In this document: in pieces, positions 35,301-39,835 of the stretch
How the letters are laid out: each line of letters opens with the position of its first letter
Numbering within the stretch: the first letter of the stretch is position 1
Assembly: GCA_965645245.1 (NCBI GenBank)
Contig: OZ287071.1
Span: 620,001-684,000, forward strand
Origin: Massalongia carnosa
Lineage: Eukaryota
Length of the DNA: 64,000 nt
Direction: 5' to 3'
Position numbers and translations under genes: made by a program
Notes under the pieces: model-generated
Told to the model about the DNA's origin: nothing
What the model saw: only the letters and a program-made list of their open reading frames with translations
The model's database searches: none

Positions 35301-36003
35301 TTCAATCTTTTTTTTCCCCAGCAACTAATAAATATACAGGCAGTGAATCTTGTCTTCACTTACTACCCATAGATACAACCCAACTAGCCTAGCAGCCTAG
35401 CAGCCTTTTAGTAGTCTTGCAGAAGCAAGTCACCCTTACTCACGTTAAAGAGCGAGGCTTCGGGGAAAATAGCTCCTCTTTCCTGCCTGCTTTTTCACCT
35501 TAATGGTCTTGGTTGGTTTTTTCAAAGCCACGGCTCATTGTCTCGTCAATGAGATGGAAACCGTTATCAACAGCACATCGCATACTAGAATTGGGGTTTC
35601 CAAGTGGCCTCTGTACGCCACAATAAGCGATGGAAGCCCTTTTTCATTCCCTTTATTTTACTCGTTTTCTTTCTTCAACTCTCTCTACCCCCTAACTCCC
35701 CCTAAATCCATCAAAACTTTCCTTCCCCTATTCTTTAAACATTACTCCAAGTAAATCTAAAGGGCCCTAAAACCATATTGTATTTAGATATATTCTGGCT
35801 AACTTCTGACTTATTCACCTCTTCGCCTAAACTCACCCATTTCTCAAGTTGGCCCAATCCTTTCCCCTTTTTAAAGCCAATGGCAAATGCACTAGCAAAG
35901 ATCTCGCCCCACGAAGGCCCCCTCCCCCGGTAGTGCTTCATTTTCATCAGTATCCTCAACAATCCATATTCATTTACTCACCATCCCTATCCCTATCCTC
36001 TTC

Positions 36004-36535
36004 GCCTTCCGCGCCCCCGTGGTACGAGGCCAGTCCAGAATATCACAAGGAGCTGAGTGAAGCGCGAACGGCCCAACGGGCACATCATACGCGGCTCATG
36101 GAGCATCATATGAAAATATGGAAGTCAACATGGGTGACTTATCAAAATCGCATTCGACTCCCCACCGAAGCTCAACAAGCTTCGCTTGACAAAAAGAGAT
36201 TAAAAATTCACATCAATTTGGCAAAAGCGGAGAGTTCACTAGCAACGCAAATTCGCACGGAGAAAATCGGGCTAGCCAACTTTCTTTTCAACCGAAGGGT
36301 ACCCAATGTAAACTCACCGGCGTGCATATGTGGATGGCCAAGGCAGACGGCCAAACACGTCATCATGCACTGTCAGCTGATAGACGGAAGAAATGGATTA
36401 TTTAATCAAGTGAAAACTAACAATTATCGCACGATAATTGAAAATTCCGCAAAATTGAAAAAGCTGACAGAATGGCTAATGCGGGCAGATATACTAAAAC
36501 AGTTTTCATTTGCAGCGACCATGCTGTACGGATAA
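36004..36535 (+). pseudogene. C-terminal fragment of LINE ORF2 (post-RT CCHC region)
   Basis: LAKAESSLATQIRTEKIGLANFLFNRRVPNVNSPACICGWPRQTAKHVIMHC is typical of fungal Tad1-clade pol C-termini. Confidence 0.85.
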
Positions 36536-36565
36536 TTCCCGTCGACACAGCATTTGAAATGTTTG

Positions 36566-38372
36566 GGTTCTGCGGGGGCTCGTTAAGGCAGATCTGCACC
36601 CCGTTAATATCGGAGTACATATTTTTAGAGGTTCAAGTCCTTTCTAGCAGTCATCAGCTGAAAATAATGCATTTTGACACGGGTATGGTGTGGATTTGAC
36701 ACGGGTAGACCTCGATGGATCACAAAACGAATGAAAAGAGTTCAGTGGAACTTCGTTAATATTGTTCTCGAAGACCTCGTTAATAAGATTTTCATAGACC
36801 TCGTTAACAACGTTCGGTCATACTCTTAAAGGTTCAAGTCCTTTCATGCAGTCATCGGCTGAGAGCTAGAGACGTACGACACGGGTCAGCTATGTCTATC
36901 ACACGGTCTCCTTCGTCTACAACACGGAGCCCTCCGGCTAAAAGAAATAAAACATGTAGACACATAGTGTAGGGTCACACCCTACACGATACAAGGGATT
37001 TGGGTTATGAAAACCATCCGATTGATGGCTACCGTGAGCAACACGGCCCGAACCGGAGTCGTACTGGGGATAGTGGAGGCAACCTAGTCATTAAATAGGA
37101 CACCCTTGGGACAAGAAGAGGGCAATATACGAGGAACCCGTTAATTGATAACAGTCTAGGCCCTGAGCTAATAGACGAATTTCAAAACGAGCACCCCTCC
37201 GAGTTGTCCTCGACTCTTTTTGGTTAGTAGGGACGGAAAATCGATACTATACTGCCTGGTCAGGAGCATAGTGGTCGAAATCCCCGCGAGACATGGTCGG
37301 TTCATAAACGGGAGACCTTTATGAATAACGCGAAGTGGGCGTAAAAAACCCGTGAGGCGTGGTATGCAATGGCGGCTACCGTACGGAGACCGTCTGCATA
37401 GCCCGAGAGGACAGTATGCGCATGTCGGTGTATATAGAGCAGGGAATGTCTATCTCGCTCGTAACGAGACCCCGTCGGTTCGCCGGCGCATGGGCTACGG
37501 CTAGACTCGCCCTTGATATATGCTTAAGGAGTAAACTGGGTTTGACCTGGGCGAAAGGGACGTCGTTCACCCCAATCGTAGAACTCATCAATAGTCTTGG
37601 GCCGTAAAACGCACCAGTGAGATGAACGAAAACTGGAATAGAGACTTCACGAAGGAGATGTCAGCTCTATTTTATCATTCTTAGCCTCTATGTGGTGCAG
37701 GCTATCAACACCTCCTCGGAGGTGGCCAATATCTGATCATCGCCAACGCTGAAGCCCACCTCGGTGGCCGTTTGAATGATCAACGTCTCTACTGATCATT
37801 CATCACTTCGAAGGCATACAAAGCCCATTCATTCGGAATGGCCACACCCCTCAGGCGGAAGCCTTTCACCTCATCGAAAAAGTCCATTCAGTCGGAATGG
37901 CCACACCCCCCAGGCGGAAGCCTTTCACCTCATCGAAAAAGTTCATTCAGTCGGAATGGCCACACCCCCCAGGCGGAAAGCCTCTCACCTCATCGAAAAA
38001 GCCCATTCATTCGGAATGGCCAAATTTTCACATCTTCATTTATACGACACCACGATCTGCCCTCGATCATGGCCAGTCTATCATCTATTGAGTCAAAACG
38101 GTTAAAGAGAGAGAATGTTCGTCGAACGTGTGGAGATACACTGTCTAGTTCATCGGGTCTATAGGATTCCTAGCGCTTGAAGATCTGAGTGTATGCACCG
38201 CGTGGTAGAAGAACGATCTCGTTGCGTTCAATATGGAATAAAAGGGAGTGGTTTTACCCTGGGGGCCAGGTTTCCACTTCCTGACTGTTGTTTATGTACT
38301 TAAAAAGCAGTCACAGCGTCATATCCTAAGGATGCATACGCTTAATGAATAAATAAAAAAATTAAAAATAGA
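36566..38372 (+). mobile_element. Non-coding SINE-like retroposed element (1.8 kb) nested in the LINE 3' UTR
   Basis: 9-bp direct repeat AAATGTTTG (36557-36565, 38373-38381). tRNA-like head with B-box GGTTCAAGTCC at 36630 and again at 36831. 3' hairpins 38282-38342 and an A-rich tail 38348-38372. No credible ORF. Confidence 0.6.
37820..38021. repeat. ~59-bp tandem repeat, 3.4 copies
   Basis: Unit AAGYYCATTCAKTCGGAATGGCCACACCCCYCAGGCGGAAGCCTTTCACCTCATCGAAA. Confidence 0.95.
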
Positions 38373-39835
38373 AAATGTTTGACTTCTTCCCCTTTTCTTT
38401 CGCTCTTTTCCTTTTTCTTTCAAGGACCTCACAGATACACATTATTAGGTACACTGAGGGGTCATGGGGATCCCGCAGGCGATAATACTGGTTACTACGT
38501 TTTTATTCCTTAAAAGGTTTTCCTATGTACAATAGTCATATAGAACCACGCCCGTCATGGGCCGGCCTTCGGCCGGTGACATATCGGTGTAAGAATTTAT
38601 CATCATCATCATCCCTATCCTCTTCTTTTCCCATCAGCCCCTTCCCTCCCTTAAAAATTTGCTATCGAAGGCCCCATAACAACATTTCTTGTGCCCGAGA
38701 AGAAGAAGATCCTCTGTGCCGAAAGAAAGCGATACAACTTACCCCAACCGCTTATAGTTTGTTATTTCTTGATAAATTCCCCACGTTCCCGGCTTGATTA
38801 ACTCGATTAACGTTCTCTTATATGCATGCATGCAAAGTCTACCTCTCCCAAAACTTTATAAAAAATGTTTCTCCAAATCCACACCCTCCATCGCTTAACC
38901 CTTTATGTACCATCTACCTGCTAATCAAACAAACCTCCCAACCTAATAATACCTGATATCTCCCCCTTTCCCCCATTCCCCATCTCTCTCTCTCTCTCTC
39001 TCTCCCACGCTCACTCGCTAACCCCCCCCCCCCCCTTTCCCTCCAACCAACTCGGGGTCACGCCGCAGTTGAACGGGCCCTCCCTCCCTCCCGGTAAGAC
39101 AGGGGCACCAGCGTTCGAATAGTGTACGCGCGCATCCTTGCTGCTTCACCCATTCCTCCAACTTATCCACCTATCTCCACCAGCTACCACCACCCTTCCT
39201 CCGTGATCTGAATGGCCAGATTTCCAGAGTCTGGAAAAGAACCCGTGACTAGTAGAGGAAAATTGGGAGGAGTCGTATGAGGTCAAGAGAAAATAGAGGA
39301 AGGACAAGAAGAAAGGGGGGGGGAGGGGGGATTTTGTTTCCTGGGCTTGGCTTGGGAGTTTGGGGGGGGGGGGGTTTAATTGGTTGGATTGATTTGGTTA
39401 CCCCCTGATCTGGACCGAGAGTGTCTCGAGGAGGTGAAGGGGAGAATCAGAGATTTGCCTATAGGTATGTATGGCAGTCGGGGTGGAATAGACAAGATGA
39501 TTCGGAATGGGGTCCTTTTGCTAAAGTACCTGCCTACCTGCCTGCCTAGGTCAGGTATGTAAGTAGGTAGAATGCGAAAAAGTATGCGTTGTGCAACCCA
39601 ACTCCCAACCCCCAAACCCCCTGACGGCCGTTCCAACCGTTCCGTACATAAACATGCCTCCATCGGCTACTGGAAATACATGTTCTATAACAAAAGCAAC
39701 TTTGGGGGGGAGTTATTATATCCAACCCCGACCAGCTGGTCGGTTTCTAGATTGAGATTGATTTGATGAGTTTGTGGGTTTGTAGTCTGTTTTACATAGT
39801 TTGTTCACATACACACACACACACACACACACTCA

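Follow-up and report, generated by a model that had tools for sequence, protein, structure and literature searches.

What is the 1.8-kb block that interrupts a LINE in the genome of Massalongia carnosa, and how were its parts brought together? The block lies in the window analysed here, a stretch of 64,000 nucleotides (contig OZ287071.1 of assembly GCA_965645245.1, positions 620,001 to 684,000, forward strand), and positions are counted from the first letter of this window. The initial annotation had read it as one unusually long, non-coding SINE with a tRNA head. The block is a single retro-insertion with a 9-bp TSD, composed of two repeat families, module A and SINE B. As an insertion, it has no evident host function. 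Its features and those of the host LINE are the following (joints are marked by an arrow):

35989..36003, +, left TSD of the host LINE, 15 bp, read directly; the identical 15 letters stand at 38611-38625
36004..36556, +, host LINE, 5'-truncated: end of ORF2 (stop at 36535) and start of the 3' UTR; 97% to L103/L105/L107/L019 across 36003-36565
36557..36565, +, left TSD of the chimeric insertion, read directly; empty site in contigs of other runs
36566..37684, +, module A: the final 1119 nt of a ~1.75-kb non-coding WEIRD-like passenger, with the 3' end ...TTCTTAG
36627..36661, +, T-arm/B-box repeat unit 3 of the 4 in A (the T-arm of the initial annotation)
36828..36862, +, T-arm/B-box repeat unit 4 of the 4 in A
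37491..37497, +, candidate guide strand TGGGCTA, complementary to the joint UAG↓CCCG; a weak lead, from pair probabilities
37685..38372, +, SINE B minus its first 18 nt, joint at AAA↓CCTC
37685..37738, +, predicted remnant of the HDV-like ribozyme of B, the 5' strands of P1 and P2 being lost here (RF02682 match on the intact copy L032; descriptor match)
37820..38022, +, 59-nt tandem repeats within B
38282..38372, +, two 3' hairpins and AATAAA tail; over the final ~50 nt, similar to the 3' end of a single resident LINE family
38373..38381, +, right TSD of the chimeric insertion
38382..38625, +, remaining host LINE 3' UTR, (ATC)n tail and right TSD (38611-38625); 96% to L103/L105/L107

The host is a 5'-truncated LINE end of ~800 bp with its own 15-bp TSD. 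Nesting in a LINE 3' UTR had been proposed correctly: the host LINE matches L019 and L103/L105/L107, and the block is absent there. The 9-bp duplication around the block (AAATGTTTG, at 36557-65 and 38373-81) is present as well. It is a true TSD: the uninterrupted host LINE copies (L019; L103/L105/L107) carry the sequence once, and contigs from runs X2 and X4 omit 1816 bases, the nine letters fitting both sides of this empty site.

The block divides at 37684/37685 into two families with separate boundaries, which are found separately elsewhere. When the genome was searched with the block, matches covered only its first ~1120 bases, and the last ~690 bases matched different places. The joint of A and B is unique to the window, as B is the partner in 1 of the 75 A junctions examined, and no other copy combines these two ends. 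A single tRNA-headed SINE family bounded by these ends is therefore hardly credible, and it is refuted by the test put forward with it, as copies do not have these ends in common. ARAGORN found no tRNA gene, and positions 36566-36655 fold like shuffled sequences (z 0.07), with no cloverleaf. Position 36566, taken for the start of the element, lies ~640 nt inside module A and marks where this copy is 5'-truncated. The hairpin described as a T-arm with a B-box is present at 36627-43, not as a head but as the third of four such repeats in A. The two 3' stem-loops (z -3.6, 0/200 shuffles) and the A-rich tail are real. The initial annotation was right in that the block is a single non-coding and non-autonomous insertion with a TSD and a LINE-type 3' end. 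In its front part no ORF reaches 120 aa; the back part holds one ORF of 122 aa over the tandem repeats, with no Pfam match.

The two families could also have arrived by successive insertions, B first and then A at the 5' end of B, or in the reverse order, and the site does lie in a repeat-rich spot. However, one TSD surrounds both parts and none surrounds either part, and the 18 nt missing from the start of B stop precisely at an AA↓CC site of the kind seen in 50 other joints. Moreover, no allele with only A or only B between the same TSD was seen in the contigs of other runs, which makes this order of events very improbable. The block would rather result from one LINE-driven (TPRT) insertion of a chimeric template with module A in front of SINE B.

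SINE B is 680-800 bp long, has a fixed first base and shows 11-16-bp TSDs in 17 of the 19 copies examined; its core motif occurs at 89 places. In the intact copy L032, the first 72 bases fit an HDV-like ribozyme (RF02682 positions 1-74, 31.4 bits, E 0.012), with a score below the gathering value of 44. The predicted head has the P1-P4 elements of the double pseudoknot, the catalytic C and its first G at the 5' end. All 16 hits of the HDV descriptor in 1.05 Mb are B heads, and the B copies are too alike for covariation. Comparison with resident LINE tails, as the initial annotation had suggested, was positive: over its last ~50 bases, B matches the 3' end of a single resident LINE family at 77-89%, and the base changes keep the hairpin paired. 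Judging from its structure, B would be an ordinary ribozyme-headed SINE: self-cleavage at the first base would set it free, and the LINE-like 3' hairpin would serve its mobilisation. A second HDV-like stretch (L104:4234-4313, minus strand) combines the P3/L3 core of B with another P1 and has no Rfam score. In run X2, several variants of B carry internal deletions, and one contig joins the B tail (38354) back to B position 19 (37685), the position used in the window chimera.

In other copies, module A reaches another ~640 bases in the 5' direction, and 5'-truncated copies are common. It starts with a 23-mer repeated 1-25 times in tandem and contains four repeats, each with a 5-bp stem, a TTCAAGT loop and a shared 17-mer. 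These T-arm repeats may be TFIIIC-binding B-boxes or remnants of a SINE head. The 23-mer at the 3' end of A occurs at 73 genome places, and at two further places with two mismatches. Around each of the 72 places outside the window, 8.5 kb were taken. A is always followed by a LINE piece (at least seven families), by SINE B or by one other repeat, and the partner LINE families encode EN/RT(/RNase H) ORFs. The non-LINE repeat 'C' is the partner in L052, L097 and L114. The chimeras cluster on few contigs (C8, C19, C20, C21 and C22, with 11/73 on C21), and B is spread more evenly. In L094/L159, the 3' tail of a LINE stands in three tandem copies inside an A copy. In L171 (C11, ~2294090), A breaks off ~645 bases short of its 3' end and runs straight into telomere repeats, so a chromosome end was healed inside A. 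Diverged homologues of A were absent from two metagenome pattern scans. In runs X6 and X7, A was found at about 97-98% with low depth, which adds no divergence. A lichen metagenome is among the runs listed as containing the sequence (share 0.44), and none of those listed is an RNA run.

A TSD around A and its partner together was flagged in 29 of the 73 copies, compared with 6/146 in the shuffled control. Inspection by eye left 25, the calls at L060, L089, L093 and L113 being judged false; the 5' boundaries of A were set by hand. No TSD of 9 bp or more surrounds A alone (0/73), and 44 of the 73 copies have no TSD within the 6 kb examined. Solo A was absent from these 73 places and from the 16 that were examined among ~25 further places with its 5' motif, in an assembly with gaps. 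These results show that A has no 3' end of its own and moves only when placed ahead of a 3' piece of a LINE or SINE. The arrangement resembles elements of the MINE type: a fixed non-coding 5' module precedes a variably 5'-truncated LINE or SINE in the same orientation, one TSD surrounds both parts and none the module, and the gapped assembly has no solo module. It departs from them in one respect, as the module is not always full-length at its 5' end (the window copy is short by ~640 nt).

How, then, is A joined to so many partners? In 71 of the 73 copies A ends in AG, and the partner starts at the next base. The junction set comprised 75 cases, 64 of them distinct. The mapping filter was passed by 61, which gave 51 distinct sites, or 50 after removal of one self-match. 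Among the 14 junctions outside the mapping, 8 abut directly, 4 have no usable donor, and 2 (L055 and L116) have 12-19 unexplained first bases. The 50 partner sites follow the motif AA↓CCCG, with A at -2 in 27 and at -1 in 34, C at +1 in 40, at +2 in 41 and at +3 in 27, and G at +4 in 25 (background: A 0.335, C 0.247, G 0.195). Of the 42 bases other than C at +1 to +3, 27 are T (p 3.5e-6). This pattern would be expected of pairing to G with wobble, and a transition mismatch tolerated by the RT would look similar. The joints are exact, without microhomology, almost without added bases, and alike across LINE families with different RTs. Sites inside A that match the joint motif were not used as ends in the copies examined. 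One of them, the heptamer TAGCCCG at 37399-37405, lies ~285 bases before the A end and can pair with the candidate guide. Ten of the 64 distinct junctions are recurrent; certain chimeras are therefore also multiplied intact or by duplication.

Two simpler origins of the motif were considered. Microhomology through a hidden CCCG tail of A is unlikely: the partner's non-consensus bases were kept 65 times and replaced 3 times, and the donor has AG before the cut in 3/50, which is about chance. Inheritance of the motif from the old partner was rejected as well. The joint of L054 is CTGG, yet the daughters of this locus follow the CCCG rule and have C at +2 in 6/6; the rule thus sits in A or in a host factor. 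To judge from the sequences, an exact and wobble-tolerant site rule points to an RNA guide. The candidate is a 7-mer 190 bases before the A end that could splint the joint. Its pair probability is 0.39 in one fold and ~0.09 averaged over 30 junctions, and its conservation (37491-37497) is not above that of its surroundings. Such a 7-mer could arise by chance; it leads one to expect both A and G at +4, yet A is not enriched there.

The many young copies in the present genome allow descent to be traced. L075 has an 11-bp TSD, one copy of which follows its (CAT)n tail while the other lies 1.82 kb upstream of the joint. The DNA upstream of this TSD adjoins A in 11/11 genome hits. Eight other copies carry the L075 flank with eight other partners, none of which is the partner of L075. 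Identity to L075 reaches 100% over 1937 nt in L084 and 99.9% over 2084 nt in L078. Five of the eight carriers have their own TSDs (L071, L079, L084, L086 and L090), and most copies with this flank fall in a supported clade with L075 (99/95, bootstrap not fully settled). Similarly, L054 is an insertion with a 16-19-bp TSD in another repeat, and its flank lies inside the TSDs of L057, L081 and L092, which have other partners. L070, L083 and L089 carry a longer L054-type flank than L054 has now and show no TSD; they probably descend from the L054 locus. L063, whose TSD lies at the start of A, has at least 389 nt of flank in common with L069, a copy with a different partner in which no TSD was found. 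Thus, three TSD-marked chimeric loci (L075, L054 and L063) gave their 5' flanks to daughters with different 3' partners. As each flank was made by a chimera insertion and now stands beside other partners, A very probably parted from one partner at AG and joined another. Chimeras thus appear to supply A for further rounds, which would account for the lack of a source gene.

These relationships could also reflect RT template switching or DNA recombination within the A shared by existing chimeras, each joint having arisen once, long ago. The 1.7 kb of near-identical sequence would be ample for homologous switching, L069 has no TSD, and ten junctions do recur. Nevertheless, switching within A needs a second donor locus for every daughter junction, whereas 13 of the 15 daughter junctions either occur once among the 75 or recur only in a short truncated copy, and the very young daughters L084 and L078 have no donor locus. 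Switching of this kind is quite improbable. It is distinctly unlikely, too, that A is a classical MINE module, i.e., a cellular non-coding RNA whose gene is missing from the assembly and to whose 3' end the LINE RT jumps, with the chimeras as dead ends. The architecture is that of WEIRD-MGL and WEIRD-MgSINE, the tree of most A copies is star-like, and the assembly is incomplete at several contig ends. Yet no solo locus was found among the 73 + 16 places, and an rDNA spacer is excluded. The inherited flanks of L075, L054 and L063 arose by TSD-marked chimera insertions, so their carriers descend from chimeras. Recycling of A from chimeric loci remains the preferred reading.

Several sources and activities of A were sought and rejected. 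An origin from the rDNA spacer or ETS was dismissed as A has no match to the full 9.3-kb rDNA unit. At the C3 end, L129 (rDNA) has an SSU match of 2329 bases, which exceeds the model by ~500, and a motif resembling a group I core lies in the rDNA unit. As for the 23-mer array, TTAGGG-type telomeres were found at 2 of the 12 contig ends examined and the 23-mer at none, which speaks against a telomeric origin. The genome is of fungal type, judging from the TTAGGG telomeres, from Pfam hits and from its LINEs, which encode endonuclease, RT and RNase H. The contig ends L146-L148, L150-L153 and L155 look bacterial by eye and may be contamination or misjoins. A group I intron was judged by its P3/P7/P8 core and by the U before the target cut: the descriptor gave 0 hits in A and a hit in the rDNA control, Rfam gave none, and position -1 is A in 34/50. 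Neither HDV (0 descriptor hits) nor another Rfam family was detected in A, the best Rfam match, SpR10, lying far below gathering and being taken as chance. A spliceosomal lariat is unlikely, since the daughters have contiguous upstream flanks and seven copies are without the best branch-point A. Furthermore, G precedes many first units, as from a cap (19/62 boundaries). The Ire1-type cut motif needs G before the cut; the target sites have A there, and such a cut was rejected.

The findings on joints and descent can be brought together in one explanation, which we regard as likely: a chimeric template of A and B was inserted by a LINE, and A is recycled among partners through chimeric loci. These loci would be transcribed from the repeated 5' units of A or from upstream host DNA, as the daughter insertions suggest. 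In all likelihood, A has no solo source gene. Very probably, A would leave its earlier partner precisely at the end of ...UUAG and become attached, at AA↓CCCG, to another RNA competent for TPRT; the LINE machinery of this second partner would then insert the new chimera. The exchange may be steered by RNA-RNA pairing, with a G-rich guide that reads CCCG with G.U wobble. For the joining itself, a reaction at the RNA level directed by A is tentatively preferred. A jump of the RT positioned by the same guide pairing is possible, and the use of a host nuclease and tRNA ligase is unlikely. Fungi use Trl1, not RtcB. Cutting and joining would more readily be placed at the RNA level, before reverse transcription. 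This is favoured because the joints are exact with few added bases, because they are the same across LINE families with differing RTs, and because RNA ligation has a precedent in the part of the literature available (PMC6789731). Rfam and the group I and HDV descriptors gave no known ribozyme fold in A, which counts against a ribozyme. It is rather doubtful that A is a new kind of mobile element, a non-coding RNA that lacks its own transposition end, excises itself from one LINE transcript and splices onto another by CCCG guide pairing; such an RNA-catalysed trans-splicing parasite would have an undescribed fold, and WEIRD would belong to the same class.

The architecture of the A chimeras is already known from the MINE/WEIRD elements of Magnaporthe, which have been unexplained since 2005-2007: an abundant non-coding RNA without a gene, always joined to LINE pieces at a short motif. 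If the present explanation is true, such modules are self-propagating passengers and not captured housekeeping RNAs. The exact, wobble-tolerant joint lends itself to a simple test-tube assay, and a programmable RNA 5'-replacement reaction would have interest as a tool.

Some known systems share single traits with the two families. Within the accessible text on R2 and R2/R1 SIDEs (PMC3414825) and on NARTc of trypanosomes, such elements, like B, begin exactly with an HDV-like ribozyme and borrow their 3' end from a LINE. Unlike the R2 SIDEs as characterised there (PMC3414825), B is not site-specific, and its ribozyme activity is predicted only. No LINE with the ribozyme head of B was found in the 1.05 Mb examined, which lends no support to a derivation of B by internal deletion. 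U6/L1 chimeras formed through RtcB ligation represent a demonstrated route by which an RNA becomes attached, ahead of retrotransposition, to the front of a LINE of variable truncation, according to the sections available (PMC6789731). There, U6 differs from A in having a real solo gene and a cyclic phosphate end, and recycling from chimeras is not described in those sections.

The closest likeness is to the MINEs of Magnaporthe grisea/oryzae, for which the accessible part of the report describes WEIRD-MGL, a single WEIRD-MgSINE chimera with a 12-bp repeat, and no solo WEIRD (PMC2104539). As far as described there, WEIRD and A are both non-coding modules with a fixed 3' end, fused to 5'-truncated LINEs or SINEs in the same orientation. 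Both kinds of chimera have one TSD, no solo copy, no microhomology, recurrent joints and a short joint motif, which is given as GCC*A/U in that text (PMC2104539) and is AA↓CCCG here; the two may be the same phenomenon. Compared by description and not by sequence with the published outline of WEIRD, A is longer, often 5'-truncated, starts with a 23-mer array and is found on at least seven LINE families. In the available text, WEIRD is taken as a housekeeping RNA whose gene is missing (PMC2104539), whereas here the chimeras themselves appear to be the sources. Neither propagation from chimeras by swapping of partners nor a wobble-tolerant joint rule was found in the literature searched, which included the accessible parts of PMC11838501 and PMC4476161 and few subscription papers. 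What is new here is that chimeric loci appear to seed chimeras with other partners, and that the joint follows a wobble-tolerant rule.
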